A stretch of 52,590 bases of DNA from a virus (IMGVR_UViG_3300004457_000145:1-52590), one strand, 5' to 3'. Positions 692 through 44,662 are shown, counted from the stretch's first letter. A program made the numbers and translations. Notes: a model not told the origin generated them from the letters alone.

Positions 692-715
692 GATAAGATA
701 CACTCTACTATTCGT

Positions 716-1108
716 GTGGCAAAGTTTCAAACCTTCAAGGATTTGAATGTAACGTTCAAACCACATCCTGTAACAGGTGACTTAATTGTCAAGAAGGATG
801 ATGCTGCAATTAAACAAGCAGTCGTCAATTTGCTGCTTACTACAAAGGGCGAGAGACCATTTCAACCAGATCTAGGGTCTAATCTTCGTAATTTACTATT
901 TGAGACTCTAGATGTGGCGACTGCTGCTGAAATTGGCGATGACATTCGTCAGACTCTAGATCAGTTTGAACCAAGAATCACGGTCACTGGTCTAGAGGTT
1001 GATGCTAATTTTGATGACAATGGATTTGACGTTGCTTTAGAATTTGAAATTATTGGTAGAGAAGACTTTCCTGTCGCCATAGAATTCTTCCTAGAGAGAA
1101 CTCGATAA
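716..1108 (+). CDS. gp25: Baseplate wedge subunit gp25
   Basis: FKDL...HPVTGD...AIKQAVVNLLLTTKGERPFQPDLGS...FEPRI, typical GPW/gp25 family. GTG start. Confidence 0.93.
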   Translation: MAKFQTFKDLNVTFKPHPVTGDLIVKKDDAAIKQAVVNLLLTTKGERPFQPDLGSNLRNLLFETLDVATAAEIGDDIRQTLDQFEPRITVTGLEVDANFDDNGFDVALEFEIIGREDFPVAIEFFLERTR

Positions 1109-2916: not shown

Positions 2917-2922
2917 GCTTAA

Positions 2923-5900
2923 ATGGCAGAGACTAGGAGAATATCTACTCTAATCGAGAGTCAACTACCTGAGTTCATTTCTTCTGACTACGAAAATTTT
3001 TCTAAAATTGTAGAGAAATATTACGAGCAGTTAGAACTTAGGGGTCAACCTCTCGACGTGATTCAGAATATCACGAAATATCGTGATATCGATTTTTATG
3101 AGAAAAGTCTTCTAGCACAAGGCACAGAACTAGCAGTAGCAGTATCTGCGAGTGATACTACTATTGAATTGATTGATGCATCTTCTTTCCCTGTGGAAAA
3201 TGGTTACATCAAGATTAACGATGAGATCTTGTTTTACAAAGAGAGAAACGGTAACACTCTCAGTGATGTCTCTCGTGGCGTCAGTGGCAATACAAAACTA
3301 GGTGACCTATACGAAGCAAGCAACTTCGTAACAACGCTTGCTGTGGGTCACAACTCAGGTGTTGCAGTTCAGAACATCAGCAACCTGTTCTTGTATGCTA
3401 TTGTCAAGAACTTTGAGTCTGACTACCTTGCATCCTTCCCAGAAAAATATCTGAATGAGAAGGTAGACAAGCGAACTCTAATCAAGAATATTACTAGTTT
3501 CTATCGTGCAAAAGGCACTGATAGATCAATCAAGTTTATTTTCAACACTCTGGTAGGAAATGACACTCCAGAGGTTGTAAGACCAAAAGATTTTACTGTA
3601 AAAGCATCCACATCCGATTGGATCACCTCTTACTCATTGAAAGTAAAAGTTCTATCGGGTAATGTAACTGATCTCATTGGAGAAGAGATTGTTCAAGGCG
3701 TAGACTCATTTAATCCTAATGCAGGTTTTGCATCTGCTATTGTAGACAATGTTTTCGGTGCTGGCACAGTTGATGGAGAGCAACTATATGAAATTGCTCT
3801 AGATACATCTTCGATTAACAATACATTCAAGATTGCATCTAAAACTGAGTTAACAGCAGACTTTGATAATGGTCTTACTGTTGGAGATCGTATCAATGTG
3901 TTTTCCACAGAAGGATTTTCTTCTACAGGCAGATTCGTAATCCGTGGAGAAGAATTTGAGTATAGTGATAAAAGTGTTACTCAGTTTCTAGTCAGCGACA
4001 GAGAAAGCAATATTGTTTATGCTACTGGAGAATCTGTTTACAGTTTTTCCACAGTTACCTCTGGAAATGTCAAACTTCTAGTCCTTGGTGTCCTTTACAA
4101 CTTGAGCACTGATGCTCCTGTTCCTTATTCTGAGGAAGGAGATCGTATTCAGGTATCTGGTGCAGGTTTTGAGACCAGAGATCCTATTATTATGACTCCA
4201 CAGAATACCATCCGTTGGATTCTGAGTCAAGAGAATGCTGAAGCAGCAAATCCTACTATTCAGTCTCAGATTGGAGATTTGCCTGGTGATGTTGCTGCTG
4301 TATACGAAGATAGCAACTATTACTACATCTGTTCGTCTTCTTTCCCAACTAGACCTATTCTTCTTGCAAATACTCAGCAGACACTGCAAGATCAGAAGAC
4401 GATGAGATTGATTCGTAAGAATCCTCAAGTTATTACTGAATCGTATAAAACAACACAAAGAGATGTTGGCATCTTGGTTGATGGAACTCTTGCTTTCAGT
4501 TATAGAGATTTTGATCAAGTCAAATTTGGTCCTATCACCAAGTTCAGTATTTCACAAAAAGGTGCTGGATTCCAAGATCCTCCTAATGTTCTGATTAATA
4601 ATGTCCCAGGAAGAGCAAGATCTTTCTTGGCAGGTGAGGTTGTTGACAGTATTGAACTTCTCGATCAGACTGTATACACTGTTCCACCAACTGTAACTAT
4701 TACTTCTGGTAGAAATGGAAAAGCATCTGCTACTGTTACTTTCGGTAGAATTACAAGTATTCAAGTAATTGATGCTGGTGAATACTACACCACACCACCT
4801 ACAGTAAGAATTATCGATCGTCTCGGCAAAGGTCGTTTTGCAGAATACAATGCTGTTTTAGAAAATGGTAAAATTGTTGACTTTGAGCAAGTAGACGAAG
4901 GTAAGTTCTACTCCAAAGGAAATGTGTTAGTCGATATTCTTCCTGTTGGTGATGGAGCAGCAGTAACATCTGATATCGTTACATACACCAAAGATCGCTA
5001 CAAGAAACTACAGTCTGAGTTAGACTCGTCTAATGGTTATGCATTTCAGAACTACAACCCTACTAAAGGGTATGGTTATGGTATTGTTGCCAATCCTTCT
5101 AATCTCAGAACTGATCTGAATGATGATGGAACTTCACACTCTCCTATTTTGGGATTTGCTTATGATGGCAATCCAATTTATGGTCCTTATGGTTATGAGA
5201 ACCCTCTAGATGCTAGCAGTGCTGTCAGCAGACTGTCATCATCGTATTATCTGAAGAGCAACAGACTAGGTGGTCCAAATCCATCTGAGTTCCCACTTGG
5301 AACTTTTATTGAAGATTACGAGTGGAGACCTAGCACTCAGACTGGTAAATTAGAATTAGACGAAAATAATGGAAGATTCTGTGCAACACCAGAATATCCA
5401 GCAGGAGTCTATGCATACTTTATTACTATCGATATTAATGGTAATCCTGCATTCCCATATATCCTAGGATCAAATTATTATTCATTACCTGTTGATTCTA
5501 ACTATAATGCAGATCTATCTCAGGATGATTTACCAAAGTATGCCAAGAGACTAAAAACTCCAGGAATGCCTAGCAATGGTGGTAATACTATTCTGAAGAT
5601 CAACAAAACCACTAGTGGTAGTATTTCTACATTGAATGTAGAGGATTCTCCAGCATCATTCAAAGTTGGTAATAGATTCATTGTTAATGACACTGGAACC
5701 GAAGGATCTGGCGCAGCTGCGATTGTCGCAGAGGTTACTGGTAAGACTATTACATCACTCAAATCAAATGATCTAGATCCTACTAATACTCTAGCAGTCT
5801 CTTATATTGAGACTATTACCCCTTGCTATCTGTTTGAAGGAGATATTGTTACTCAAGAAGATAGCAACTACACTGGTAGGGTTGTCGGAGACATTTCTAA

Positions 5901-28268: not shown

Positions 28269-31200
28269 ATGAGTTTTAACATTAATTCCGACAAGGAGTT
28301 TATTAAGGCGTCCAAACCTCAGATTATCGGCACAGCAGAATTTGCTATTAAGTCTGGTGTCGGTGTAGACGAAAAAGAAGTTATCAGGGCTCTTCTGGAT
28401 TCAGAAGAGAAGTTACCTCGTGTAGGTATCAATAGGACTGGACAAAGAGTCAATAATATTACTGTATTAACAGGAGGTTCTGGATACACTATTAGACCAA
28501 CTGTTACAGTTTCTCCTCCTCCAGCTGGCGTTGAGGGTGCTATTCAAGCACTTGCGTCCTCCTTTATCTTTAATGGTAGAGTCTCCAGTATTGCTATCAA
28601 TAATCCTGGTAAAGGATATAGCGAACCTCCTACTGTAACTATTACTGGTGGTAATGGTGCTGGTGCTACCGCCGAAGCATTTCTAGATACTGTTGATTTT
28701 GAACTAGACATCAACGGTGCTATTAGAACTTCTACGTCTATCATTTCTGATACGGCGAGAATTCTCAACCTGGATATCGATAACTTCGTTACTCCAGATG
28801 CTAACTTCAGGGGTCCAAACCTGAAGAACTACATGAACAATACTGGAACCATTTGGTCCGCTAATGTTATTGTTCAAAAAGACTCGTATAGATATTTTGG
28901 TTCAAATGTATACCAGGCAATAAATGCTGGTCAGACAGGTGACTTTGCTCCTGAGCATCTTGACGGAATTGTGCTCAATGGCGAAGTCCAATTAAAGCAT
29001 ATTGGTTTCCGTGTAGTTGATTCTACTGAGTTTGGATATAATGAAACTGGAGAGGCAGGTATCTTCCCAAGATCTATTACACCTTTGCTTGGTGATAGGT
29101 CCGATAAAATTGCTACTACTGAATACGTTCTTAATCTGGCAACCAATGACGTTGGTGGCAGAATCTATGTTTCGTCTCAAATTGGTTCTGACCTGAACGA
29201 TGGTCGTTCAGCAGTTAACCCAGTTAGAACAGTTAAAAGGGCAGCACAACTTGCATGGGAAACTGTTGGTGTTAAAGAAACACTGATTGTTTCTGGTGGT
29301 GACTATGTAGAAGACAACCCTATCTCTCTTCCACCTGATGCATCAGTTGTTGGTGATAACCTTCGTCTTGTAATTATCAGACCTAATAATCCTGGTAAGC
29401 ACATCTTTAAGTTTGGTGATAAAAACTATGTTACTGGCGTAACTTATAGAGATAAAGTTGATGCCAACGGAGACTCCGTTGCAACATGGGACTTTGCCAT
29501 GGTGTTTGACGATAAGCAAAGAATTCTTATCGACAAAGAAGCTAATGGAGATTTTGGAGTAAACTTCCCGACTGGTCATCAAGTATTTGGACCTTCAAAA
29601 TTCCAAATTAATTTTCAAAATAATAGCGGTCTTGCTCAACTAGCAAGCGGACTAGAAGCGATTGGTGTTAACACTGGCGCTAGAGGCGATATTTCTAATG
29701 TTAGGTTTGATAACCTTACTGGAAACAATGCATACCGAAATGGTAAACTTGACATTGTTATTACCAGTGGTTCGTTCCTATCTGGTGAAGGTTTTAGATA
29801 TCTAATCAATGGAACTCAAGGGGTATCTCTAGATAGTTCATCAGGAACAACTAGAGCAAATGCTCTAGACAACACAATTTTGATGTCTACTGACCCTACT
29901 CTCAGTAACATCATTCCAGGTGGATACGTATATCTTGATGGAACATCGAATGCTCTTGTAGGAAATGGTTTCTATGAAGTTCTACAAATTGATGATGATA
30001 GTGCTCCTGAATACTATGTAACTGTTGCTCCCATTCTAGGTTCTGTTGGATGGAGAGAAGAACTAGCAGGAACCATTGATATTTACGCTGCATCTGTAAA
30101 CGAAGGTGCATTCGATTCTACTAGTATCGATTCAATCCGTTCTGAGGGTGAAGTAGTTTATACTACAGAAGATTTTGATACCCCACTTCCTCTTTCTAGA
30201 ATTGATTTTACTCTGCAGGGAACTTTTAATGATGGTTTCCAAAATGAAGTATTTGGAGATGCAGAAGATCTGGGTGGAATTGTATTCTATACAAACGCAC
30301 TTGTCGGTAGAGAAAATACTCACGATTTCAAAGAAGGAGAAGAAATTTTAATTGAAGGTCTTCCTACAGTTTCTCCTGACCTTTCATTCTTGAATGGTTT
30401 TCAAAGAATCTATAAGGTTATTGAAGATCCTGATGGTCGTGCAAGACGTTTTGTTATTCCCAAGAAAGTTGATGCTGCTCTTGGATTAAACAGTAATAAT
30501 AATTTTGATCCTGGTCAGTTTGCTACTGTTAAATCTGCGACAAGAAGTGTTACTCTATCCCTTCTCAACTCGCCAAACACATTCCCTCTAGCAACTCCCG
30601 TTGATAGAAGGTTCCAAGATGCTGTCACATTCATTAGAAATAATAGAGATTTTATTTCGGATGAAGTTGTTGGAAGAATCAACGATGAGTTCAAGAAAGA
30701 ATACTACTCTGTCTATAATATTGCAGGAACTGCATCAAGCCAATTTACTCCTACAGATGTAAGTTATAATCCTGCTACAGGAGATTCAGTATTTACTGTT
30801 GCTAATCATGGTCTTGTAGCAGGCGATGGTGTCAGAATCGATGATGATTCGGTTGTGTTCACTTGTGCCATGGATGGCAATGCGACTGAGCATAGTGCTC
30901 CACAATCTCATCATTATTCAAGTGGAAAAACTCTACCTATCACGGCAAGCACAACAAATACATTTACTGTAAATGTAGGTGCTTCTGGACCAGATCAACA
31001 ATATACTCCATCCAATGCAACTTATAATCCAGCTACGGGTGACATGGTTCTCACCATTGGAACTCATGGATTGAGTATTGGAGAAGGTGTTGTTATTGAC
31101 GACAATTCTCTTTCATTCACATGTCAGATGGATGGTTTTGATACCGCCAAGACATATCCACGTCCAGGAATCGATCCATTTGCTGGAAGATCTATTCCCA

Positions 31201-34200
31201 TTAAAGATACTAGCGATACTACCATCACATTGTATGTTGGTGTTTCTGGTGCTAATCAATACTTTACTCCATCAAATGCCACTTACGATCCAGTAACTGG
31301 CGACATGACTGTTACTGTTGGTCAGCATGGTCTTGGAGTAGGTCGTAGTGTTGTTCTTGAAGACGAATCATTTACGTTTACATGTGCTCTTGATGGCAAC
31401 CAGTCAAATCACCAATACCCACGTCCTGGACAAGATCCATTCGCAGGTAAGTCTATTGCTATTACTGCTGTGGGAGCAACTCAGCATACAGCAACAGATG
31501 TTGACTACGATGCAGTTACAGGTGATACAGAAATTACAATTCCATCTCACGGTTTTACGACTGGAGATTATATTAAGATCTCAGATGGATCACTAGTCTT
31601 TACATGTGATCTTGATGGTAATACCGTTCAGAAATCATATCCTCGTCCTTCGTATGATTATCCATCTAATCGTTGGTTGTCAATTACAGTAATTGATTCT
31701 GAGAAATTCCGTGTCAATATTGGAGCTTCTAGTTACGAAGGAACACACACGTTTGTAAGCGCATCCAGTAATGGTATTGATCGTCAAGATGGAACTTTCA
31801 CTATCAATGTAGGAACGTCTTCTGACACTTCCGCACACACGTTTGTAAGCGCCTCTGTAGGTGCTATTAAGCATGAACCACAATCTATCCATAGTTTCCA
31901 AGGATCAACTGCAAATGCTATTAAGCATCTTCCACAGTCTGCACATACCTTTGTAAGAGCAGCAACAGGTGCTATTAAAGTAGGTGGTTCTACGTTTGAT
32001 ATTTTCTTAGGAACTACTGATGATATACACACATATGTGAGTGGAGGAACAGTAGAATACGGCGGAAGCACATATTCTATTAGTAATTTTGCATACGATA
32101 ACATTGTTACTGGTGTTGCTACTGTTACTGTAGCAAATCCAATTAATAATATTACTGATGATGCTACAGTTAAACTTGCAGATATTCTTCTTAGCTGTGC
32201 TAATGGACAAAAAGTATATCCAAGTTTCAGTATTCCTGTAGATGATACTCAATGTAAGCAAGACGTTGCTCACTTCCTCAATGCTTTAACCAGGGACCTT
32301 GAATTTGGTTGCAATCATAATATGATTGAAGCTGCCAAAAAATATATTGTTGGAGCTAAAATTAGTTATGTTGAAAATGAAATTATTCAAACTGTTCGTG
32401 CGGTAGAATATACTACACAGTTAGCAATCTTTGCTATGTGTAACTGGAGAATTGGTAACAGAACTCCAGGAGAAGATGTATATACTCCTGTATATTCATC
32501 AATACCAAGATATTTTGATGACACGGTAATAACCACAACTGCTACAGATGGAGGAACAATTGCTTGCTCCAATGTAGAGTCAGCAATTAGAACTTTATCT
32601 TTCCTTTATGTTGATGTTCTTGCAAACAACACTAACGGCACCAATCTCGATGCTGCATATTTGATTGCAAGAAATAGACATCTCATCGCAGATCTGGCAC
32701 TAATAGATACAGAAACTCTATACCCATCTTTAAATCTATCAGATACACACCAAAGAAAATGTCGTAGAGATATCAGTTACATTCTTGGTGGTCTAATTAG
32801 AGACTTGTCTCTTGGAGGCAACAGTGGAATTGTTACTAACGCAGAATTTTATTACAGTGGTGCTGCACTAACAGGAATTGATGCGTCACAATTAGAAGAA
32901 ACCAGATACGCATATACAAGAGTTGCTGAATACGCAAAATCAGCAATGCGTAACTGGTCTAGTTCTACTACTTCTGAAGTTGTAGAAGTAACACCAACAA
33001 CTGCTACTTATACTCCAGCAAGCGGTGTAGTAGTTATTCAAATTCCTACCCCATCTACAATTCCAGATTTAAATGACAGAATTGCATTTAAAGAAGGAGC
33101 TCTTACATTTACTTGTTCTGGTGGAACTCATGCGAGTCCTACTCCTACAGATAGAAACTACGGTAACAGTCTGACGATTACCAACATCAATAATGTTGGT
33201 GGTGGTATTTTAGAAATTACAGTTAACGTGGGTAATGTTACATCACTAACTGGTAATGTTCCACATACTTTTGATAGTGCTTTGGCAGATGGCACTATCA
33301 TTATCTACAACCCAGTTGATACAAGTAATTCTGATATTCCTAAAGTTGAAGATTGGAATATTCTTCTGTATCCTACTACTCCTCTATGTTCTAATGTAGC
33401 AACTGCAATTGACACATCATTTGCATTGCTTGATGGTATTCTAGAGTATGCAGATGATGATCAGTCACCCACTGCTATTCAACCTGGAGCGACTGCAATT
33501 GATACAGGAACTTTATATGATACAGCAAATATCATCACATATCCTGATTCATTCATCTATGATGCTGACAACCAGCGTGTAGCAGTTCGTGGTGATTATG
33601 ATGACTATCCAATTATTGAGGCATCTCCATACACCCAGAACGCATCTGTTATCTCCTTCCTAGGTGGTGGTGGCGCTGAGGTTGATGGCAACAAAGTTAA
33701 GCAACCTAACTGCCCATTCCCTGGTCTTGAGTTAGACGGAACAGCATCCTTCCCCAATCAGGGTAAGTCGATGGTTGCGGCAGCATTCACGATCGTCTCC
33801 TTCGGAGGAACAGGATACAGAGTTGTTAACGATGGTTACACCCAGTTGGTGTCTGTCTTCGTTATTTTCTGTGCCGATGGCGTTCTTGCAGAATCTGGTG
33901 GTTACTGTTCTATCACTAACTCCGCTACAAACTTCGGTCAGTTTGCTCTAAGAGCAATTGGATTTAGAGAAGAACCATACGTTTTTGATGCTGGTTATTT
34001 CTCGGAAGGTTCATACATTCGTGCTATCATCACGAACGTTTCTCAAACTCCTACAGGAAGAACAATTCTCACTATTGAGAATCTTGGTAGAGAACCACTA
34101 GAGCATTACATCCTTAAGGTTGATGGTCTAAGAAATGTTGACGAAGATACTGAGTTCTTCGTTGAAGAGATTACTCAAGTAGGTGCTGGTCCACCGTTCA

Positions 34201-37200
34201 CTGCTACATGCATTTTCGACGATGGGTCTGGTAGTCCTGTCGAACTAGTTGACATTGCTACAGGATCCACTGTTACTGCTGCTAATTTGAGTGGCAGAAC
34301 TGTCAACCTGCATAGACCATCTATTGTTAACTCTTCCTCGCATACGTGGGAATTTGCTGGTTCAGGAACTAACTACTTGGCACTGCCTGAGAACGGTGGA
34401 ACTAAAGTAGAAGCAAACGAGCAAGTATCTGAATTCTACGGTCGCGTTTATGTTTCTGGAACTGACGAACTTGGTGACTTTAAAGTTGGAACGTTCGCTA
34501 AGATCGAAAACAGAACTGGTGCTATCACCTTTACTGGAACGGTTACCATCTCGGAAGTTGAATTCTTGAAACTGAAAGGTGGCGACGTTGTTGTCACAGG
34601 TTTCGATGACTCCAACACTCTGGGTGGTGCATCTTCTTCTGATAGTAAGATCCCAACTCAAAAGGCAGTTAGAGACTTTATCACTAACAACCTTGGTGCA
34701 TACATCCAGAAAGAATACTCTACTAACTCTGTTCCTAGAGCACTTGTAGAACTAACTGACTCTGGTAAGATCTCCCTAGACCAGATTCCTGCTCTAAGAC
34801 CATTTGAAGTCTACACAGTTTCAAACCTATCTGAAAGACTCGAAATTGAAGGAGCACTTGCTGGTGACATCGCAATTCAGCAAGATAATAATACATCATT
34901 CATTCTGAATAATGATAATGATAGTTTGTTCTTAGCATTTGCTGTAGATCCTACACTAACTTTCACTATCAATGATATCTTTGAGGGAAGTATTTCTCAG
35001 GGACAAATTCAATCAACTGAATACAGACAAGGCGTCATGTATCAGATTGTTATCACTGATCCTGGTTCTGGATATACTATCCCCCCAACTCTTACTATTT
35101 CTGGCGGTTCACCAGGACTAGGTGCGATTGGTGCATCTGCAAGTTGCACTATTGCAAACGGTCAAGTTGTTACAGTATCGATTGATGAGTTCAATGGATA
35201 TGTTGGTGGTTTTGGTTACACGGCACAACCAACAATTACATTCTCTGCTCCTCCTGCAGGAGGAACACAAGCAACTGGTCTTGCATTAATTGAGAGCAGA
35301 TTATATGGCAATATTGTTAATGCCATTAAGATCACAGATACTGATCAAATAGATTCTAGTGATCTTCCTGCAGAAACTGTTAACTTAACAAGAACTATTA
35401 ACACTTCTGCTAGTGATAGCAACAACTGGGTATCACTATCTACCTCAACTGTTGATGCTAGAGATATTACTGGTGGTCCGATTGCAACTGACCTACTTGC
35501 TACCAACTCTACTGCTGCAAACTCTTACACATTCTTAAGAGGTGATCAATCTTATGCTCTGGCAGTTCAATCACTGAAGTCTCCAGAAGAAAGATACTTC
35601 GCAAAACTGACTGTTCCTGCTCAGTCTGGTTCAATTAACATGGTCTTTGCGACCAACCAAAATGCATTGCAGGGTCACCTAATTGTTGATAGTGTTTTTG
35701 GAATTCCATCAGAAACTATCATTCAATCTGTAACCACCGAAAGTGGTCTGACTACGATTGGATTCGCTCAAGAAAAAGCACTAACAGCAACAATTCCAGC
35801 TGGAACAATTATTGAGTTTAGAAGAGCAACATCTCCAATCAGATTTGACTCTACATTTACTGAAGGTAACTTTATTGAAGAAATCATTATTGCCGATGGT
35901 GGTAATGGATTTACCAATGGAGAATATTTCAACCAAGGTGTTGTCGGTGGAAATGGTCAAGGGTTAAAGGCAACTTATATTGTAGAAAACAATCAAGTTG
36001 TTGATATTCTAATCACTAGTGGTGGTTCCAATTATACTCAAGACTTCTCTACTAATATTGCTCCAAGTGTAATCGGAAGTGGAACTGGTCTTGATCTTAG
36101 ATGTAAGAGATCTACTATTAATAGACAGTATGCAAACGTTACTGTTGATATTGATAGAGTTCAAGAAGGTTCTGTTGACCCAGAATACGGAACAGTTGGT
36201 GTTGCTAGATTCGATAAGGCACAGTTCTTTATCAACGTTGGTGGAGAAGGTTCTATCAGACTGAAGACTGCTTCTAACAGTGTTGACTCTGGTCTTGATG
36301 CTGACTTACTCGATGGTAAGCAAGGTTCGTTCTACCAGAATGCAAGTAGTTTGACTTCTGGAACACTTGATTCTGATAGATTAGCAGGAACATATAACAT
36401 TGATATTTCTGGTCAGTCTCAGAACACTATCAGACTGCTGAGTGGTATTAACAACCCCTCCTCTAACCCATCTCCTAACACGTTCAGCACAGGTATTATT
36501 TCTGATACCAAGAACAATAATGCTGACCAGCTAGTTGACGGTGGAACCAAGCATATGGTTCTGACCCTGAGATCTGGTCCTGACGCTACCTATGGTGGCA
36601 TTAGACAGTTGGCATTCACAGACAACGACAACATGTGGTTGCGTGGTTCTGGAACTGGTGTTACTACATTTGGAACATGGGCTAAAATCTGGACATCAGA
36701 AAACGATGGTATTGATACAGGTCTTGATGCTGACCGCCTTGATAATAAGCAAGGAACATGGTATCAAAATGCTCTAAACATTAACTACGGAACAGTTTCT
36801 GCAAATAGATTACCTACATTCCAATCAGCAACTTCTTTCAGAAATACCCTGAAGGTTAAGTCTTACAACGGTGATCCTAAGTATAACATCTACGTCTCTG
36901 GCAGAATTCTATCAACTCTGCCTACACCTAACCCATTTACTCCTGGTAATGCGGTTAAAGTTTATAATGCTAACTCCCAAGCAATTGGTGATCTTGAAAT
37001 TGATAACTTGATTATCAACGATGATACTGCAGATAACTTTAACGATTATACAATTATCCAAGCAAGACTAATCTCTGGTGGATTTACAGGTGCTCTGACA
37101 ATTGGAACAGCAAGTAATAGAGTTGAGTTCCAAGACTTTACGATTGCAGATGATAACAATATTGATATTGCTACTCTGGAATCCGATGGAGGAACTGCTA

Positions 37201-38756
37201 ATTTACGCATGGGTAGAACAGATGGTAATGCATCTAACCCTGGCATTTACTTTAGTTCTTCTCAACTTGCTGCAAATTACAACTCATCTATTGTTGCAAC
37301 TGGAGGAACAGGAGTTGATGGTTCTGGAACACTAAATGTTCAAGTTGTTGATTCTGACGGATTCACTGTCAAAGGAAACATTATTTGGAATGAAGGTAAC
37401 GTTGCATTTAATGATACCAATATTGTTACTACTTACAATGCTCTTGGTCTTCCAACACTAAGAAGCGCAGTAATGCGTGATGCCTCTGGTGACTTTGCTG
37501 CTAATCAGATTACAGTCAAAGCAGGTTTTGATGGTATCGTTGGTGCTTCGTCACTGAACGTATTGAAATCTGGCGATACAATGACTGGCACCTTGGATAT
37601 TACAGGTGCTGGTTCTGGTCTATCCGTTCAGGGAATCACTGGTTTGACTGGTGACGTTACCATGGATAACGACCTTACCATCGGAACTAATGTATTCTTT
37701 GTAGATGAATCCGAAGAAGAGGTTGGTATCGGAACTCTTGTTCCATCAGATAAACTATCTGTAGTTGGTGGTTCCTTCTCTATTGCTTCTGGAGGTGGTT
37801 CTAATTCGATTGGAACTACTAATGGTTTCGGTATTGTATACGATACCACTAACGGTGTCGCTTATCAAATATCGAAGTCCACCAGTGGAAACACTTCAAT
37901 CACTTGGGGAACTTCCGAATCTGGAACGACTACCAATAAGATGTCTCTTGATCCTTCAGGTGATCTTTATCCTCTCCTGTCTACTCAAGATTTAGGTCTG
38001 AATGCTACTAACAACAGATGGAGAAATGCATACATCAAAGATGTATATGCTAAGTCTTCTCTGGCAATTTCAGATGCTACTGCTAATGCAGGAGCTCCTG
38101 CATACTTCCTAGGTGCCTCTGGTTTCCGTAACTTCCGAGTTGGTAACCAACTGTTAGCAGATAATACATTTGAAATCACTGCAAGCACTGCAAATGGTGG
38201 TCAGGCATGGAACAGCACTCCTGCACTGTTTATTCAAGGTTCTACTAATAGAGTTGCAATTAATACCACTAACTTTAGTGGAACTGATACGTCAGAAGCA
38301 ACACCTGTAACTAGAAACTATCAACTGAATATTGAAGGTGACCTGAACTTCAATGGTCAACTCTTCCAGAACAACGAAGAGTTTGTTACTTCAAGATGGA
38401 CACTGAATAAGACTACCAATAATATTTGGAGACTGTCTAAAGTTGGTGTTGGCAAACCTGACCCAGTTTATACTATAGAGACTGCTCCTCTAGTAGTCAG
38501 TGGTTCTCTTGTTAACGATGGTTCCGTTAATGTTGGTGGTTCTACTTTCAGTTCTGGTGTAAACACTAGTGTTGTATATGCAAACGCAGATCCTCAGTAT
38601 ATTGATACTTACGGTATTTTCAAAACAAACCGCAATACAATCAGCGAAGGAATCACAATTCCTTCAGCAACAAATGCTATGAGTGCAGGTCCTCTAACTA
38701 TAAATAACGGTGTAGTCGTCGTTATTCCAAACGGTTCTTCCTGGTCGGTTGTCTAA
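28269..38756 (+). CDS. Giant tail fibre / structural protein (3495 aa)
   Basis: KIATTEYV; beta-helix entry IYVS..GSDLNDG..PVRTVKRA; two GLDAD(L/R)LD fibre motifs; C-terminal NAMSAGPLTINNGVVVVIPNGSSWSVV typical of marine phage fibres. Confidence 0.82.
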   Translation: MSFNINSDKEFIKASKPQIIGTAEFAIKSGVGVDEKEVIRALLDSEEKLPRVGINRTGQRVNNITVLTGGSGYTIRPTVTVSPPPAGVEGAIQALASSFIFNGRVSSIAINNPGKGYSEPPTVTITGGNGAGATAEAFLDTVDFELDINGAIRTSTSIISDTARILNLDIDNFVTPDANFRGPNLKNYMNNTGTIWSANVIVQKDSYRYFGSNVYQAINAGQTGDFAPEHLDGIVLNGEVQLKHIGFRVVDSTEFGYNETGEAGIFPRSITPLLGDRSDKIATTEYVLNLATNDVGGRIYVSSQIGSDLNDGRSAVNPVRTVKRAAQLAWETVGVKETLIVSGGDYVEDNPISLPPDASVVGDNLRLVIIRPNNPGKHIFKFGDKNYVTGVTYRDKVDANGDSVATWDFAMVFDDKQRILIDKEANGDFGVNFPTGHQVFGPSKFQINFQNNSGLAQLASGLEAIGVNTGARGDISNVRFDNLTGNNAYRNGKLDIVITSGSFLSGEGFRYLINGTQGVSLDSSSGTTRANALDNTILMSTDPTLSNIIPGGYVYLDGTSNALVGNGFYEVLQIDDDSAPEYYVTVAPILGSVGWREELAGTIDIYAASVNEGAFDSTSIDSIRSEGEVVYTTEDFDTPLPLSRIDFTLQGTFNDGFQNEVFGDAEDLGGIVFYTNALVGRENTHDFKEGEEILIEGLPTVSPDLSFLNGFQRIYKVIEDPDGRARRFVIPKKVDAALGLNSNNNFDPGQFATVKSATRSVTLSLLNSPNTFPLATPVDRRFQDAVTFIRNNRDFISDEVVGRINDEFKKEYYSVYNIAGTASSQFTPTDVSYNPATGDSVFTVANHGLVAGDGVRIDDDSVVFTCAMDGNATEHSAPQSHHYSSGKTLPITASTTNTFTVNVGASGPDQQYTPSNATYNPATGDMVLTIGTHGLSIGEGVVIDDNSLSFTCQMDGFDTAKTYPRPGIDPFAGRSIPIKDTSDTTITLYVGVSGANQYFTPSNATYDPVTGDMTVTVGQHGLGVGRSVVLEDESFTFTCALDGNQSNHQYPRPGQDPFAGKSIAITAVGATQHTATDVDYDAVTGDTEITIPSHGFTTGDYIKISDGSLVFTCDLDGNTVQKSYPRPSYDYPSNRWLSITVIDSEKFRVNIGASSYEGTHTFVSASSNGIDRQDGTFTINVGTSSDTSAHTFVSASVGAIKHEPQSIHSFQGSTANAIKHLPQSAHTFVRAATGAIKVGGSTFDIFLGTTDDIHTYVSGGTVEYGGSTYSISNFAYDNIVTGVATVTVANPINNITDDATVKLADILLSCANGQKVYPSFSIPVDDTQCKQDVAHFLNALTRDLEFGCNHNMIEAAKKYIVGAKISYVENEIIQTVRAVEYTTQLAIFAMCNWRIGNRTPGEDVYTPVYSSIPRYFDDTVITTTATDGGTIACSNVESAIRTLSFLYVDVLANNTNGTNLDAAYLIARNRHLIADLALIDTETLYPSLNLSDTHQRKCRRDISYILGGLIRDLSLGGNSGIVTNAEFYYSGAALTGIDASQLEETRYAYTRVAEYAKSAMRNWSSSTTSEVVEVTPTTATYTPASGVVVIQIPTPSTIPDLNDRIAFKEGALTFTCSGGTHASPTPTDRNYGNSLTITNINNVGGGILEITVNVGNVTSLTGNVPHTFDSALADGTIIIYNPVDTSNSDIPKVEDWNILLYPTTPLCSNVATAIDTSFALLDGILEYADDDQSPTAIQPGATAIDTGTLYDTANIITYPDSFIYDADNQRVAVRGDYDDYPIIEASPYTQNASVISFLGGGGAEVDGNKVKQPNCPFPGLELDGTASFPNQGKSMVAAAFTIVSFGGTGYRVVNDGYTQLVSVFVIFCADGVLAESGGYCSITNSATNFGQFALRAIGFREEPYVFDAGYFSEGSYIRAIITNVSQTPTGRTILTIENLGREPLEHYILKVDGLRNVDEDTEFFVEEITQVGAGPPFTATCIFDDGSGSPVELVDIATGSTVTAANLSGRTVNLHRPSIVNSSSHTWEFAGSGTNYLALPENGGTKVEANEQVSEFYGRVYVSGTDELGDFKVGTFAKIENRTGAITFTGTVTISEVEFLKLKGGDVVVTGFDDSNTLGGASSSDSKIPTQKAVRDFITNNLGAYIQKEYSTNSVPRALVELTDSGKISLDQIPALRPFEVYTVSNLSERLEIEGALAGDIAIQQDNNTSFILNNDNDSLFLAFAVDPTLTFTINDIFEGSISQGQIQSTEYRQGVMYQIVITDPGSGYTIPPTLTISGGSPGLGAIGASASCTIANGQVVTVSIDEFNGYVGGFGYTAQPTITFSAPPAGGTQATGLALIESRLYGNIVNAIKITDTDQIDSSDLPAETVNLTRTINTSASDSNNWVSLSTSTVDARDITGGPIATDLLATNSTAANSYTFLRGDQSYALAVQSLKSPEERYFAKLTVPAQSGSINMVFATNQNALQGHLIVDSVFGIPSETIIQSVTTESGLTTIGFAQEKALTATIPAGTIIEFRRATSPIRFDSTFTEGNFIEEIIIADGGNGFTNGEYFNQGVVGGNGQGLKATYIVENNQVVDILITSGGSNYTQDFSTNIAPSVIGSGTGLDLRCKRSTINRQYANVTVDIDRVQEGSVDPEYGTVGVARFDKAQFFINVGGEGSIRLKTASNSVDSGLDADLLDGKQGSFYQNASSLTSGTLDSDRLAGTYNIDISGQSQNTIRLLSGINNPSSNPSPNTFSTGIISDTKNNNADQLVDGGTKHMVLTLRSGPDATYGGIRQLAFTDNDNMWLRGSGTGVTTFGTWAKIWTSENDGIDTGLDADRLDNKQGTWYQNALNINYGTVSANRLPTFQSATSFRNTLKVKSYNGDPKYNIYVSGRILSTLPTPNPFTPGNAVKVYNANSQAIGDLEIDNLIINDDTADNFNDYTIIQARLISGGFTGALTIGTASNRVEFQDFTIADDNNIDIATLESDGGTANLRMGRTDGNASNPGIYFSSSQLAANYNSSIVATGGTGVDGSGTLNVQVVDSDGFTVKGNIIWNEGNVAFNDTNIVTTYNALGLPTLRSAVMRDASGDFAANQITVKAGFDGIVGASSLNVLKSGDTMTGTLDITGAGSGLSVQGITGLTGDVTMDNDLTIGTNVFFVDESEEEVGIGTLVPSDKLSVVGGSFSIASGGGSNSIGTTNGFGIVYDTTNGVAYQISKSTSGNTSITWGTSESGTTTNKMSLDPSGDLYPLLSTQDLGLNATNNRWRNAYIKDVYAKSSLAISDATANAGAPAYFLGASGFRNFRVGNQLLADNTFEITASTANGGQAWNSTPALFIQGSTNRVAINTTNFSGTDTSEATPVTRNYQLNIEGDLNFNGQLFQNNEEFVTSRWTLNKTTNNIWRLSKVGVGKPDPVYTIETAPLVVSGSLVNDGSVNVGGSTFSSGVNTSVVYANADPQYIDTYGIFKTNRNTISEGITIPSATNAMSAGPLTINNGVVVVIPNGSSWSVV
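30741..31980 (+). repeat. Four nested ~90-aa coding repeats (YxxxTG..HG..FTC..DG..YPRP..NVG..HTFV)
   Basis: Visible in translation. Includes an exact 19-bp direct repeat CACACACGTTTGTAAGCGC at 31744-31762 and 31834-31852. Confidence 0.8.
38699..38706 (+). promoter_or_regulatory. T4 late promoter TATAAATA inside the 3' end of the fibre gene
   Basis: Perfect consensus about 53 nt before the first Gly-rich gene. Confidence 0.65.
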
Positions 38757-38758
38757 AT

Positions 38759-39517
38759 ATGAGTTCACTATACGTCAATAACATCCAGTCATCAACTGGA
38801 ACTGTTGTAACTATACCAGCTGGCAATGCATTGTCATTTGCTGGGACGCAACTAAGTTCAAACACCATCTTACCTTCGCCTCAAGCAGGTAAGATGGTAT
38901 TTTCTAATGGATCTAATTATGAGTTTGGTGACTATGGTGCTGTAAGAGTTATTCAATTTCAAAGTAATACAACTTACACAGTTCCTAATAATGTTTCTAT
39001 GGTTCACGTTAAATTATGTGGAGCTGGTGGAGGTGGGTCTGGACACGGTGAGTCTGGAGGAGCTGGTGGTTATGCTGAGGGATTCTTTACCGCATCTCAA
39101 TTGGGTGGTGCTGGAGCATCAATCGCAATCACTGTAGGAACTTCTGGAACTGCAACATATTATTCTGGATCGAGTGGTAATGGCGGAACAACATCATTCG
39201 GAAGTTTAATGTCCGCAACTGGGGGACGAGGTGCTAACAGTGTAAACCAACACTGTGGTGGTCATGGTGGACTTGGATCAGGAGGATCAGTAAACCTTTA
39301 TGGTGGTGGTGCTGGCGGACACGTCACATATAATCATAGAGGTGGATCTAGTTACTTCGGTGGTGGTGGTGCTGCTGGTCACCCACAAGGTGGCGCATAT
39401 GCATTCAACCACTCCCAAAATTGTGCCCCTGGTGGCGGTGGTGCAGGAGAGCATTATAGATCATACTCGGGAGGATTTGGAAAAACAGGTATCATCATAA
39501 TCATGGAGTATAGATAA
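38759..39517 (+). CDS. Glycine-rich fibre-tip/adhesin-like protein 1
   Basis: LCGAGGGGSG, GGAGGYAE, GGTTSFG, HCGG, GHPQGG, C-terminal GIIIIMEY; polyglycine-rich domain. Confidence 0.8.
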   Translation: MSSLYVNNIQSSTGTVVTIPAGNALSFAGTQLSSNTILPSPQAGKMVFSNGSNYEFGDYGAVRVIQFQSNTTYTVPNNVSMVHVKLCGAGGGGSGHGESGGAGGYAEGFFTASQLGGAGASIAITVGTSGTATYYSGSSGNGGTTSFGSLMSATGGRGANSVNQHCGGHGGLGSGGSVNLYGGGAGGHVTYNHRGGSSYFGGGGAAGHPQGGAYAFNHSQNCAPGGGGAGEHYRSYSGGFGKTGIIIIMEYR

Positions 39518-40282
39518 ATGTCAGTATTAAGAGTAAACGAACTCAGGTCACAAACAGGCAACATCATCAGCATTCCTTCAGGACACGAATTGGTTTTGGA
39601 TACTACTCCAATCAATTCAAACGCTTTGCCACCAACAGCAGGAACTGCTAATTCAGGAAAATTTCTAAAGTCATCTAATGGTTCTTCTATTGGATGGGAG
39701 TCTGTAGGTCCAGTTTCTATTAGAACATATACTTCTAGTGGAACGTGGTCTAGACCAGCTGGTGTTACTAAGATTCTAGTAAGACTTGTAGGAGGTGGTG
39801 GTGCAGGTTCAGGTGTTGGAGAATCTGGTGCTGCTGGTGGATATTCAGAAAGGTTGCTTGATGTAACTTCTATCAGCAGTGTATCAGTAACTATTGGAGC
39901 AGGTTCAGCTTCTCCTACCACGTATTCAGGTAGATCAGGTAACGGCGGAACAACATCATTTGGATCATATTTATCGGCATCTGGTGGCGCTGGTGCTAAT
40001 ACATCACATCAACATTGCGGTGGTCTTCCTGGAATAGGTTCAGGAGGAGATATTAACCTCTACGGAGGTGGCGGAAATGGACATTCTTACTATGGTTGTG
40101 GGGATGGAGGAACATCATTTTTTGGTGGATCTGGAGCAGTTGGACACCCACAAGGTGGACAATATGCACACAATAATTCAGAATCAGCTGGATTTGGTGC
40201 AGGTGGTGGTCCTGGATATCATACATCAACTCAAGGTGCCAAAGGTAAAGGTGGCGTTGTAGTAGTATACGAATTTAAATAA
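39518..40282 (+). CDS. Glycine-rich fibre-tip/adhesin-like protein 2
   Basis: Paralogue of the previous gene: YTSSGTWSRPAGVTKILVRLVGGGG, HCGG, GHPQGG, GVVVVYEF. Confidence 0.8.
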   Translation: MSVLRVNELRSQTGNIISIPSGHELVLDTTPINSNALPPTAGTANSGKFLKSSNGSSIGWESVGPVSIRTYTSSGTWSRPAGVTKILVRLVGGGGAGSGVGESGAAGGYSERLLDVTSISSVSVTIGAGSASPTTYSGRSGNGGTTSFGSYLSASGGAGANTSHQHCGGLPGIGSGGDINLYGGGGNGHSYYGCGDGGTSFFGGSGAVGHPQGGQYAHNNSESAGFGAGGGPGYHTSTQGAKGKGGVVVVYEFK

Positions 40283-40283
40283 A

Positions 40284-41048
40284 ATGAGCACTCTATCAGT
40301 AAATAACATCGAAGCGGCACAAGGTGGTGTCGTTAATATTCCATCAGGTTATAGTATATCTGTCGATGGCATTTTAATTAATGGCAATACTTTACCTCCA
40401 ACTCCGTCTGGAAGTAATCAAGGTCAAGCACTCTATGTTAATAGTAGTGGAAATCTAGACTTTTCAACTTCTGGTCCTAGAAGTATTCAAACGTTTACTT
40501 CTAGTGGAACTTGGACTAAACCTTCAGGTATTTCAAAAGTTCTTGTTCAAATTGTTGGTGGCGGTGGTGCGGCTTCTAGTTATGGAGAATCTGGTGCTGC
40601 TGGAGGATTTTCAGAAAAACTAATTGATGTTACTGGAACTAATAGTGTAACTGTTACTGTTGGAGCAGGTTCATCTGCATATACATCATACTCAGGTAGA
40701 GCAGGTGGTGGTGGAACATCTTCATTTGGTTCCTTTATGTCTGCTACTGGAGGTGGCGGGGGGAATAGCGCACACCAACATTGCGGCGGTCTTCCTGGAC
40801 TAGGTTCTGGTGGTGATCTAAATATCTATGGGGGTGGAGGTGCTGGACACTCATATTATGGAAGATTTGGTGGAGGAGATTCTTTCTTCGGTGGTGGTGG
40901 TGCTGCTGGTCACCCACAAGGCGGTTACTATGCTTACAATAATAGAGAACTAGTTGCTGCTGGTGGTGGCGGTTCAGGTGGTTATCATTACTACAGTCAC
41001 GGTGCTACTGGAAAAGATGGTGTTGTTATTGTATACGAATATTCCTAA
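40284..41048 (+). CDS. Glycine-rich fibre-tip/adhesin-like protein 3
   Basis: Paralogue: FTSSGTWTKPSGISKVLVQIVGGGG, HCGG, GHPQGG, GVVIVYEY. Confidence 0.8.
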   Translation: MSTLSVNNIEAAQGGVVNIPSGYSISVDGILINGNTLPPTPSGSNQGQALYVNSSGNLDFSTSGPRSIQTFTSSGTWTKPSGISKVLVQIVGGGGAASSYGESGAAGGFSEKLIDVTGTNSVTVTVGAGSSAYTSYSGRAGGGGTSSFGSFMSATGGGGGNSAHQHCGGLPGLGSGGDLNIYGGGGAGHSYYGRFGGGDSFFGGGGAAGHPQGGYYAYNNRELVAAGGGGSGGYHYYSHGATGKDGVVIVYEYS

Positions 41049-41550: not shown

Positions 41551-43050
41551 ATGAAAGTCAATTCAATATGCATTGTCGGTGGTGGCACTGCAGGATGGAT
41601 GTCTGCGGCAACTTTCTCAAGAGTTTTTCCAGATAAGAAGATTACTCTTGTCGAGTCTCCATCTATTGCCACCATCGGTGTTGGAGAATCTACCACTCAG
41701 TTCTTTAGAAAGTGGTTGAACTTTATTGATCTTGATAATTCATGGATGGAAGAATGCGATGCCACATACAAGTTTAGTGTAAGGTTTGAAAACTTCAACG
41801 AAGAAGATCCTTTCCACTATCCATTTACAACGCAAGACTCAAGGAAAGATCCAACTGCGTGGTTCATACACAAAGCAATTACTCCAGGATTGTCTGTGAG
41901 TGATTATGCTGATTGGTATGCTCCACAAATGAAAGCAGTTAATGAGGGTAGAATACCAACCCAAGACTTTGATAGATTTGTTCTGAAGAGAGACACAGGT
42001 TTCCACTTCGACGCTACTAAGTTTGCAACTTGGTTAAAGAATAATTTGTGTCAGAATGTAGAGCACATTGAAGCAGATGTTATTAGTGCCGACCTAGATG
42101 AGTCTGGCAATATAGAGAGTTTACATCTTGACAATGATTCATTGTTGAAAGCAGATCTATTCATTGATTGCACAGGATTTAGATCTTACTTGATCAATGA
42201 TATCATGAAGACTCCATGGGAGACCTTTGATGATATGCTACCCAATGATAGTGCATGGACTGTAAGACTTCCATATACAGATAAAAAGTCTCAGATGAGG
42301 ACTTATACTAACTGCACTGCATTGAACAATGGTTGGGTATGGAATGTCCCATTGAGAAATAGAATAGGAACAGGATACAACTATTCATCAAAGTTTATTA
42401 GTGATGAGGATGCTCTAGAAGAATTTAAAGAGCACCTTGGATATCCTAAAGAAACTCTATGTGAATATAGAAACATCAAATTTAAAACGGGAATCTCAAA
42501 GAAACCCTGGAACAAAAATGTCCTTGCAATTGGATTGTCTGGTGGATTTATTGAACCCCTAGAATCAAATGGATTGCTTAGTGTCCATGAATGGTTGATC
42601 TATGCTTCTCAAATAATTGGAGACAATGCAGTAAGAGCATTAGATATTAATGCATTCAACTTTACTGTTACCAAAGAGTTTAAAACTTTTGCTTACTTTG
42701 TATATTATCACTATGCTTTATCAAGTAGAACTGACTCTCCATACTGGAAGTATATGACAGAACAATATGATGGACATGGAGATCTTCATGATGAATATTT
42801 GTATAAAACTAGAAAGGCAACTACGCCATTGAACAAATTAGAATATGAAAAATTTACTTATACTAACTATAGTGGCGAATCTTTTATCATGGCAGGACAC
42901 GGATACAATCCATTTAATCTTGTAACTCTAAGACTTCTAGAGACAGAAAACATCATTGACAAAGGTTCATATATATCTTTAGATAACTATAAGCATTACG
43001 ACGGCTTAGTTAATACATTCCCATTTGCTCACGAATATTATGAAAGTTGA
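41551..43050 (+). CDS. Flavin-dependent halogenase, tryptophan-halogenase (PrnA-like) family, copy 1
   Basis: GGGTAG FAD motif, IGVGEST, ATYK (catalytic Lys position), HFDA, FIDCTGF, WVWNVP, FIEPLESNG. Confidence 0.9.
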   Translation: MKVNSICIVGGGTAGWMSAATFSRVFPDKKITLVESPSIATIGVGESTTQFFRKWLNFIDLDNSWMEECDATYKFSVRFENFNEEDPFHYPFTTQDSRKDPTAWFIHKAITPGLSVSDYADWYAPQMKAVNEGRIPTQDFDRFVLKRDTGFHFDATKFATWLKNNLCQNVEHIEADVISADLDESGNIESLHLDNDSLLKADLFIDCTGFRSYLINDIMKTPWETFDDMLPNDSAWTVRLPYTDKKSQMRTYTNCTALNNGWVWNVPLRNRIGTGYNYSSKFISDEDALEEFKEHLGYPKETLCEYRNIKFKTGISKKPWNKNVLAIGLSGGFIEPLESNGLLSVHEWLIYASQIIGDNAVRALDINAFNFTVTKEFKTFAYFVYYHYALSSRTDSPYWKYMTEQYDGHGDLHDEYLYKTRKATTPLNKLEYEKFTYTNYSGESFIMAGHGYNPFNLVTLRLLETENIIDKGSYISLDNYKHYDGLVNTFPFAHEYYES

Positions 43051-44662
43051 AAAGATCGTTATTGTTGGTGGTGGTTCGTCTGGATGGATGACTGCAGCAC
43101 TATTGGCAAAACAACTGCCTCATATTAATGTTACAGTTATTGAACCCGAAGATATTCCTACGGTTGGTGTTGGAGAGTCAACACTTGGTCATATCAATAG
43201 ATACATGAAGATGATTGGCATTCTCGATAGAGAAAAAGAATGGATGCCATACTGTGCTGCAACGTATAAAGTATCAATTCAGTTTACAGACTTTACACAC
43301 ATTGGAGATAGATACCAATATCCATTTGGTCAGATGGATTATAGTAATGATATCAGTCTTCAAGACTATGCTTATATCAAAGCAAGACATCCTGAATTTG
43401 AAGTTCCGTATGCTAACTTCTACAATCCTATAGCATACTTAGCAGACAATAATAAAATGACTGCTGATTCTAGGGTTATCAGGAATTTTGATTTCAACTA
43501 TGACACATCATATCATTTTGACGCTGCTCGTTTTGGGGAATGGTTAAAAATTAATATATGTGAACCAGAGGGTGTCACTGTAATTAGAGATTCAGTTGAA
43601 AATATTAATGTGAATAATGATGGTATTGAATCGTTAGTATTAAAAAAAGATAAATCTAAAATTACTGCAGATCTATTCATTGATTGCACAGGATTCAAAT
43701 CTCTTCTTCTAGAGCAAACTATGGGTTCTGAGTTTGTAAGTTTCAGTGATGTTCTTCCTAATGACAAAGCAATTGCTACAAAAATTCCATATGTCGATAA
43801 GAAAAAAGAAATTCATAATGTAACAGACTGCCATGCTTTATCTGCTGGTTGGGTTTGGGATATTCCTTTGTGGCATAGAAGAGGAACTGGATATGTATAC
43901 TCCAGCAAATATATTAGTAGAGAAGATGCAGAGACAGAATTTAGAGCACATCTTGCCAAGACTCTAGATCCAAAGAGAGCAGAAGAAGCAGAATTTTTTG
44001 AGATTGATATTCGTCATGGAAAAAGAAAAAGAGCATGGGTTAAGAACGTAGTTGGTATTGGACTCTCCTATGGGTTCTTAGAACCCCTAGAATCTACAGG
44101 ACTTTTCACTACACATGAAAATGCTATTATGCTAGTTAACACCCTTGAGAGACGTTCTGGGTTTGTCTCGAAGGTTGATGTCGATGGATATAACTATGCT
44201 GCAGATCATATCATCGAATGCTTTAAGTCATTTATTCAGTTCCATTATTCCCTGTCACAGAGAGAAGATAGTCAATATTGGAAAGATCAAATTCATAACA
44301 CTCCTTTGTATTACAATGATAATCCTACTGACATTACATTGACATCCCCAAGATTGTATAAGGAATATTTACATGCAGTAAATGTAGCTAATGTCAGTGA
44401 AGACCTACAAGGATTAAATTATATTGCAGGGGGGATGGGGTATAATCATGTTGGACCATCGGAAACCAACTTCAGACTTAGCAAACAATACGCTGATCCG
44501 TCTAGAATAAATAAGGGTATGGTAGTATCTAGACAAACCAGAGACTATGTGATGCGCCAAATTGTTAATATGCAGTCTACTTATGAATTTCTCCAAAATA
44601 ATGTCTACTTTGAATATATTTCGACAGAGAGAAAATACACACCGAAAGAATACAACTTCTAA
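43040..44662 (+). CDS. Flavin-dependent halogenase, PrnA-like family, copy 2
   Basis: ATG 43040 (MKVEKIVIVGGGSSG), VGVGEST, ATYK, YHFDA, FIDCTGF, WVWDIP, FLEPLESTG. Confidence 0.9.
   Translation: MKVEKIVIVGGGSSGWMTAALLAKQLPHINVTVIEPEDIPTVGVGESTLGHINRYMKMIGILDREKEWMPYCAATYKVSIQFTDFTHIGDRYQYPFGQMDYSNDISLQDYAYIKARHPEFEVPYANFYNPIAYLADNNKMTADSRVIRNFDFNYDTSYHFDAARFGEWLKINICEPEGVTVIRDSVENINVNNDGIESLVLKKDKSKITADLFIDCTGFKSLLLEQTMGSEFVSFSDVLPNDKAIATKIPYVDKKKEIHNVTDCHALSAGWVWDIPLWHRRGTGYVYSSKYISREDAETEFRAHLAKTLDPKRAEEAEFFEIDIRHGKRKRAWVKNVVGIGLSYGFLEPLESTGLFTTHENAIMLVNTLERRSGFVSKVDVDGYNYAADHIIECFKSFIQFHYSLSQREDSQYWKDQIHNTPLYYNDNPTDITLTSPRLYKEYLHAVNVANVSEDLQGLNYIAGGMGYNHVGPSETNFRLSKQYADPSRINKGMVVSRQTRDYVMRQIVNMQSTYEFLQNNVYFEYISTERKYTPKEYNF

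Follow-up and report, generated by a model that had tools for sequence, protein, structure and literature searches.

Phycobiliprotein-like globin modules with a conserved bilin-type site in a giant tail-fibre-type protein of a cyanophage

Can the fold of a light-harvesting protein serve as a part of a virus particle, and does it keep its pigment there? The question is raised by a 52,590-nt stretch of viral DNA (IMGVR_UViG_3300004457_000145:1-52590; hereafter the window), in which one open reading frame (ORF) of 3495 aa holds two copies of a helical module resembling phycobiliproteins (PBPs), as seen from the ORF list and translation (Table 1). At the DNA level the window shares 96% identity with Cyanophage S-RIM44, a T4-like myovirus of Synechococcus (Kyanoviridae, Vellamovirus) whose complete genome is near-identical. 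The counterpart gene of S-RIM44, also 96% identical to the ORF at the DNA level, is annotated as a structural or tail fiber protein. The ORF product matches the PHROG 5342 profile 'tail fiber protein' over its full length (E 0, 5455.9 bits; residues 1-3495 against profile positions 1-3319 of 3319), and the same module occurs in other fibre and baseplate genes of T4-like cyanophages ('short tail fiber', 'gp7 baseplate wedge'), none of whose annotations mentions a globin or PBP-like domain. Nor was such a domain found described for phage structural proteins in open-licence PubMed Central papers and bioRxiv preprints, supplements lying outside this coverage.

Modules homologous to phycobiliproteins

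Two copies of the helical module had been proposed in a first-pass annotation made from the sequence alone. All six motifs that define them were recovered in a single frame of the ORF at the nucleotides originally assigned (Table 1), and the core of copy 1 matches copy 2 by BLASTP (E 2e-10, 30% identity over 67 aa). We built a hidden Markov model (HMM) of the module in two local rounds over the proteins returned by a HMMER search with aa 1450-1750, which yielded 1416 instances. Against the six-frame translation of the window, its matches are confined to the giant ORF, at three places. Module 2 is matched in one piece (nt 32634-32984, positions 2-117, independent E-value (i-E) 1e-29). Copy 1 is matched at HMM positions 2-39 and again at 28-113, and because these two matches are complementary and lie ~1.5 kb apart, copy 1 is, as judged from its sequence, one module split by ~496 aa. 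The distant first helix thus belongs to it, as had been suggested.

Taken as a single sequence, the window module gave no match in PDB by phmmer and no usable match in the ESM Atlas, and a word-indexed protein search returned only 3 close fragments; a Pfam scan of the giant ORF protein gave zero matches. A giant tandem-repeat relative, P0008, gave one weak irrelevant match among PDB sequences. A profile of 26 aligned module units (A1) was searched against 177,635 PDB sequences and gave 63 matches at E<=10, the best 60 of which were all phycocyanin, phycoerythrin, allophycocyanin or engineered derivatives. The top match was phycocyanin alpha (E 4.9e-6), with the Cys-x-Arg-Asp of the module aligned to Cys84-x-Arg-Asp; in this search the loop on the PBP side was longer by 9-11 residues. 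We further compared 123 units by hhalign with 30 natural PBP genes taken from five cyanobacterial genomes, which were reached via psbA. The alignment (probability 96.3%, E 1.8e-9, 115 columns) spans PBP column 34 to 162 of 167, placing CxRD on CxRD, on the equivalent helix, and the invariant Tyr of the module on the conserved Tyr of the PBP 'lrE~Y' stretch. In the reciprocal direction, an A1 search of the five whole cyanobacterial genomes in six frames gave 9 matches at E<=0.1, all nine inside PF00502 ORFs. This family (CpcA/B, CpeA/B, ApcA/B) was matched at E<=10 by 7 of the 26 single modules, and every other family by at most one. It was also matched by three of six giant relatives, among them P0008 at 30.4 bits for a cut-off of 22.2, a summed score of which no single stretch passes; the NCBIfam phycocyanin alpha model was matched by two of four giant relatives.

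The same answer came from predicted structures, scored as Z-values with a structural aligner independent of Foldseek. The AlphaFold model of a canonical unit has six helices (predicted local distance difference test (pLDDT) 92, predicted template modelling score (pTM) 0.88), and its top 8 of 48,161 chains are PBPs (Z 15.3, root mean square deviation (rmsd) 2.8 Å, 141 aligned). Lower ranks were taken by photocobilin globins (Z 11.5), sensor globins (~11) and haemoglobins (6-8). Module 2 (pLDDT 82) is modelled as five helices (aa 1454-1468, 1470-1484, 1492-1515, 1519-1530 and 1539-1558), a beta domain and a sixth helix starting from Cys1707. Its top 8 of 48,161 chains are again PBPs (Z 14.2-12.4), and the ApcE bilin domain aligns at Z 13.8 with rmsd 2.3 Å and 20% identity. 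The alignments of module 2 to PBPs continue into the helix past the insert, up to model residue 277, so that the core follows PBPs and ApcE helix for helix to the last helix (Z 13-15 over both models). The globin fold is common to sensor globins (globin-coupled sensors, RsbR, HemAT; Z 9-11) and to haemoglobins, but these rank below every PBP row and gave no sequence signal in the profile searches; the photocobilin globin domain, a relative of BBAG-2 (BBAGs being the bilin biosynthesis-associated globins), scores 11.5-12.1 with the modules, also below PBPs.

In PBPs the X-Y N-terminal hairpin serves alpha/beta pairing. It is absent from the module, because the structural alignments begin only at PBP residues 24-48; the next module follows directly. 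As modelled, the module is a globin-like core of six helices and about 110-160 aa, minus this hairpin. Since the sequence profile, the comparison of profiles and both AlphaFold models each single out PBPs, the modules are genuine distant homologues of phycobiliproteins, and homology and fold are established. The proposal of a PBP or globin fold co-opted into a virion protein is in this way supported.

Some results count against the overall reading of PBP-like modules that bind a bilin. Foldseek returned almost only PBPs for the canonical unit (template modelling (TM) score 0.6-0.68, ~154 columns) and PBP-dominated rows mixed with flavohaemoglobins for the two-domain model (rmsd ~20 Å), and E<=1e-3 was never reached for either model. 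PF00502 was not matched by the window protein or its sub-segments even at E<=10, the protein lying below the Pfam gathering threshold (22.2 bits). From the first helix motif to the Cys, the loop of the module is shorter than that of PBPs by 6-11 residues, and an invariant Asp of the module, 11 residues past CxRD, has no PBP counterpart. The earlier claim that copy 2 aligns without gaps to three PBP motifs accordingly holds within each motif and fails across them, given this length difference and the ~147-aa stretch of beta domain and linkers ahead of the third motif. The module further differs from PBPs in lacking the hairpin (alignments from PBP residue ~24-34) and in being embedded, tandemly repeated and beta-interrupted in giant virion proteins.

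A bilin-type site conserved in a phage module family

The HMMER search with aa 1450-1750 gave 400 representative proteins at E<=1e-3, 70 of them at E<=1e-30; the majority have lengths of 1000-7900 aa and are matched at many places. The module is present in 146 of the 151 proteins analysed, with a median of 8 copies and a maximum of 34, and its tandem spacing shows modes at ~100-110 and 130-170 aa. Three tblastn searches of 50,697 phage genomes gave 86, 346 and 133 records, only from Synechococcus or Prochlorococcus phages, 'Cyanophage' records and a few unnamed marine viruses; the matched genes are labelled tail fibre, short tail fibre, tail protein or gp7/baseplate wedge. Tandem-repeat giants were also found on IMG/VR contigs of up to 330 kb. 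The modules belong to a large, apparently phage-borne family of CXRD globins, arranged as tandem arrays in giant fibre-type proteins.

Over the 1416 instances in 146 proteins, column frequencies are 98% for Cys, 95% for Arg, 99% for Asp, 99% for Tyr and 82% for Asn, and the extra Asp eleven residues after C-x-R-D reaches 98%. The invariant columns of a second alignment (A2) are C49, R51, D52, D63, G67, N69 and Y79. CxRD is intact in 1303 of the 1384 modules that cover the site. Where the Cys is missing, its partners tend to be missing as well: Arg or Asp is lost in 13/24 modules without Cys vs 57/1360 with it (Fisher 7e-12, uncorrected for relatedness), and Tyr in 8/24 vs 5/1360. Loss of the extra Asp (1/24 vs 25/1360) shows no significant difference. 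Copy 2 in the window carries C-R-R-D and copy 1 C-K-Q-D; at the latter place relatives carry CRQD, CTRD, CYRD, CKQD, CRED or CRRD.

The alpha-84 motif named in the first-pass annotation is the published CXRD bilin-binding motif of PBPs and BBAGs, in which the Cys is linked to ring A and the chromophore is bound by Arg and Asp (excerpts of Rockwell, Martin and Lagarias 2023, PMC10151467). BBAGs and photoglobins or photocobilins (8j2w, 8j2y) are, like the module, PBP paralogues outside the antenna; in the excerpted text, BBAGs with CXRD attach bilins by themselves, without lyase, their function being given as unknown, and photoglobins carry CXQD like copy 1 (PMC10151467). The likeness to BBAG-1 and BBAG-3 is drawn from this published description. 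BBAGs are small stand-alone cellular proteins clustered with haem oxygenase and pre-PcyA, whereas the module is a repeat in phage structural proteins; a neighbourhood of the BBAG type is absent in S-RIM44.

Of 1344 modules, 139 are followed by a last-helix motif with a second Cys; in shuffled controls the figure was 3 of 1344. The motif is largely confined to 37 proteins, and in 100 proteins fewer than 10% of modules have it. In the module 2 model the last helix begins with Cys1707. This third motif had been equated with the beta-153 site of PBPs. In a global hhalign comparison of 64 second-Cys units with 9 beta-type PBPs, the second Cys does fall on beta-Cys153 (76%, E 2.6e-6), with low confidence for the single columns, and the local alignment ends after the first 63 columns.

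According to excerpts of PMC10452541, T-type lyases (CpcT/CpeT) serve the beta-Cys153/155 position. S-RIM44 has a cpeT gene, placed 705 nt upstream of the gene for a 4017-aa 'putative tail protein' holding five modules. The arrangement recurs: in all five cyanomyoviruses compared (S-RIM44, Syn1, S-RSM4, S-CAM1 and S-PM2, of four genera), a giant module-bearing tail gene, paralogous to the window ORF, is found shortly downstream of cpeT and on its strand. The annotated gap between the two genes is 705-1064 nt in four of them; in S-PM2 the first module begins 1.9 kb downstream of cpeT, a distance taken to the module rather than to the gene start. The link to CpeT that had been suggested has support from gene order, for the paralogous tail gene and not for the window ORF, which is not the gene next to cpeT. 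In the accepted view, as given in excerpts of PMC10452541 and PMC2984593, phage CpeT serves the phycoerythrin of the host. With the CpeT of S-RIM44 as query, no relative was found among the genome contigs.

In three of the five phages (S-RIM44, L102 7600-8172; Syn1, L104 3587-4159; S-CAM1, L106 3294-3893), a 2OG-Fe(II) oxygenase gene stands between cpeT and the module-bearing tail gene.

Pigmented fibre or unpigmented bead

Is a bilin held at this site? We consider covalent attachment of a bilin to the modules plausible, with chances close to even, because of the conservation of the site, the correlated loss of its residues, the host range of the cultured carriers and the synteny with cpeT. 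Each module would keep a working bilin pocket. The fibre would be made in the bilin-rich cytoplasm of an infected Synechococcus, where phycoerythrobilin or phycocyanobilin could become thioether-linked to the CXRD Cys (Cys1498, and Cys1329 in the CXQD copy), either autocatalytically, as in ApcE and BBAGs, or through a host lyase. A second bilin might, in the cyanophage subfamily, be joined to the last-helix Cys (Cys1707, Cys1433) at the beta-Cys153 position, with the phage T-type lyase CpeT as candidate enzyme. More speculatively, the bound bilin would stabilise the bead-like module and may render the fibre sensitive to light. Such sensitivity would agree with the light-dependent adsorption that has been reported for cyanomyoviruses (excerpts of PMC2984593), the only ground for a light-sensing role, which is speculation.

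Several observations weigh against a pigment. Copy 1 has Gln in place of Arg, and the loss statistics lack correction for relatedness. The beta-153 match comes from a forced global alignment. The cpeT synteny concerns a paralogue, and a gene order kept within one virus family is not independent evidence; cpeT is found in none of the 40 uncultured giant-repeat records. The complete S-RIM44 genome holds no bilin reductase and no haem oxygenase, so that of the bilin genes to be looked for elsewhere in the genome cpeT alone was found, and the host would therefore have to supply the bilin. Among giant-repeat records more than 50% complete, a reductase is present in one of four and absent from the other three. 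Pelagibacter phage Mosig has a haem oxygenase and reductase pair (51% identity) and no module at E<=0.01. We know of no report of coloured cyanophage particles, although no specific search for one was made.

Bilin synthesis genes occur in a minority of module carriers. An adjacent pair of haem oxygenase and bilin reductase genes is present in two of the 40 uncultured giant-repeat records, 50-120 kb from the fibre gene; a reductase is lacking in the other 38, and psbA in all 40. Seen from the other side, modules are present in 5 of the 23 reductase-bearing records of at least 30 kb; the five include 3 of the 3 with a completeness of 85% or more, among them the non-independent starting record. 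That bilin cassette and module always go together was rejected as a rule, given Mosig, the 5/23 and the three records more than 50% complete without reductase.

In Mosig (L187, MT647606; filed under Kyanoviridae), the neck genes are directly preceded by genes for ferrochelatase, three 2OG-Fe(II) oxygenases, haem oxygenase and bilin reductase. In one of the uncultured records (L097, record G019; 330 kb, 93% complete), the pair of haem oxygenase and bilin reductase genes has Hsp20 and ClpS as neighbours on one side and CsgF and CsgG, which belong to curli secretion, on the other.

A different use of the same fold, which we regard as possible rather than probable, is that of a compact helical spacer of the fibre holding no bilin, in which folding or packing would be the reason for the conserved Cys, Arg, Asp and Tyr, for instance as an internal polar network between helices. 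The long arrays of up to 34 units in several period classes look structural, most carriers show no bilin genes (the 38 of 40 records and S-RIM44), and the extra invariant Asp, not found in PBPs, lies one helix stretch from the Arg and Asp. The loop that is shortened in the module is also the one that covers the pigment in PBPs. Packing, however, would hardly keep one Cys at 98% over 1416 extracellular units of ~30% identity. Loss of this Cys tracks loss of Arg, Asp and Tyr and not of the extra Asp, as expected for one ligand site, and the residues kept are exactly those that PBPs and BBAGs use for bilin, as described in excerpts of PMC10151467.

The Cys might also be reactive towards another partner, as a disulfide or thioether within or between chains that locks the fibre, or as part of a pocket for another ligand or a metal. 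Virion proteins face an oxidising medium. The two-Cys pattern of the cyanophage subfamily would agree with a lock, and a changed pocket is suggested by the additional invariant Asp together with the shorter loop. We hold this to be quite improbable: ~90% of modules (1205 of 1344) keep the first Cys without the second-Cys motif, the second Cys is matched in the forced global alignment with a bilin site of beta subunits that is distinct from the first, and the profile matched no other family. An intramodule disulfide as the general cause of the conserved Cys was rejected on the first of these grounds.

A likeness, through chance or convergence, between an unrelated helical repeat and the alpha-84 region of phycocyanin, to which the lack of Pfam or PDB sequence matches for the window protein alone and the middling structural Z-scores often reached by helical bundles could be held to point, was already disfavoured and is next to negligible, since only PBPs stood among the best 60 of 63 matches in the whole-PDB profile search, the hhalign match covers the whole core, the reciprocal search hit PBP genes nine times out of nine, and PBPs outrank all other globins in two independent models.

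To return to a pigmented fibre, its widest version appears unlikely: virions of cyanomyoviruses and of related uncultured giant phages would be biliproteins, their bilins loaded by phage CpeT and in some fed by phage haem oxygenase together with PebS, PcyA or PcyX, and the pigmented fibres would act as a photoreceptor gating adsorption. If this were true, there would be a phage-encoded acceptor for phage cpeT and for the 'orphan' bilin cassettes found in non-cyanobacterial phages. PBPs and the paralogous BBAGs have been known from cells; in the present case their fold serves as a component of virus particles, with pigment-binding residues under strong selection. With S-PM2, Syn1 and S-RIM44, which can be cultured on Synechococcus, the purpose of phage cpeT can be tested directly, as can whether the virus particle itself carries pigment. 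The same holds for the basis of the light-dependent adsorption of cyanomyoviruses (excerpts of PMC2984593) and for haem oxygenase and PcyX cassettes in phages of hosts without phycobilisomes, the function of which outside cyanobacteria is stated to be open in excerpts of PMC11480375, where BBAGs are named as one possibility. The modules also bear on the origin of phycobiliproteins and form a large natural library of small hairpin-less globins of bilin type.

Layout of the ORF and its surroundings

The coordinates of the modules, their motifs and the domains around them are collected in Table 1.

Table 1. Features of the giant ORF, in nucleotide positions of the window
Feature	Position	Strand	Basis
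Giant tail-fibre-type virion protein ORF	28269..38756	+	single open frame; PHROG 5342; S-RIM44 gene match
N-terminal domain, first half, common to giant tandem-repeat proteins	29163..29459	+	BLASTP, P0002 aa 60-153 vs window aa 299-397, E 7e-13
Module 1, N-terminal two helices (DAVTFIRNNRDFISDEV)	30603..30719	+	HMM positions 2-39, i-E 2.4e-4
Motif DAVTF...	starts 30618 (aa 784)	+	translation
Repeated beta units (Y-N-P-x-T-G-D ... F-T-C), loop before module 1 Cys helix	30720..32207	+	lies between complementary HMM matches
Module 1, core helices with C-K-Q-D (Cys1329 32253-32255; CXQD variant)	32208..32462	+	HMM positions 28-113, i-E 6e-18
Motif QCKQD...	starts 32250; Cys1329 at 32253	+	translation
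Module 1, putative last helix from second Cys (Cys1433)	32565..32627	+	motif; kept as aCa(n/d)V..aI.tL in relatives
Motif CSNVES...	starts 32565 (Cys1433)	+	translation
Module 2, helices 1-5 with C-R-R-D (Cys1498 32760, Arg1500, Asp1501), Asp1512, Tyr1528	32628..32942	+	AlphaFold, HMM
Motif DAAYL...	starts 32649 (aa 1461)	+	translation
Motif KCRRD...	starts 32757; Cys1498 at 32760	+	translation
Beta domain and linkers between helix 5 and last helix, module 2	32943..33386	+	AlphaFold strands aa 1571-1679
Module 2, last helix from second Cys (Cys1707)	33387..33449	+	AlphaFold helix, model residues 258-278
Motif CSNVAT...	starts 33387 (Cys1707)	+	translation
N-terminal domain, second half	33723..34052	+	BLASTP, P0002 aa 188-293 vs window aa 1819-1928, E 3e-18
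C-terminal domain of tandem-repeat proteins	34293..34529	+	P0002 and P0042 C-termini vs window aa 2009-2087, BLASTP E 5e-16 and 3e-11

By analogy with module 2, the segment from Cys1433 is probably the last globin helix of module 1. Four units of the module 1 insert match the insert of module 2 (BLASTP E 4e-5 to 5e-3), and PHROG repeat families of virion proteins match aa 822-1204 of the former. The insert of copy 2 is missing in two relatives (L014 and L016). One type of beta repeat (Y-x-P-x-x-G ... F-T-C) thus occupies different loops in the two globin modules.

The N-terminal domain that is contiguous in the giant tandem-repeat protein P0002 (aa 60-293) is split in the window ORF by ~1420 aa, which hold both modules. 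The domain that ends P0002 and P0042 is placed mid-protein here, with ~1400 residues more after it.

Directly after the giant ORF come three back-to-back ORFs of 252-254 aa (38759-39517, 39518-40282 and 40284-41048), hypothetical in S-RIM44, which by their size look like tandem paralogues. Directly downstream of the fibre gene cluster, two adjacent ORFs (41551-43050 and 43025-44662) correspond to tryptophan halogenase annotations of S-RIM44. Two contigs of metagenome-assembled genomes labelled Gammaproteobacteria (L203) and Bradyrhizobium (L237) carry psbA 97% and 93% identical, respectively, to the phage gene, and are probably mis-binned cyanobacterial or cyanophage DNA.

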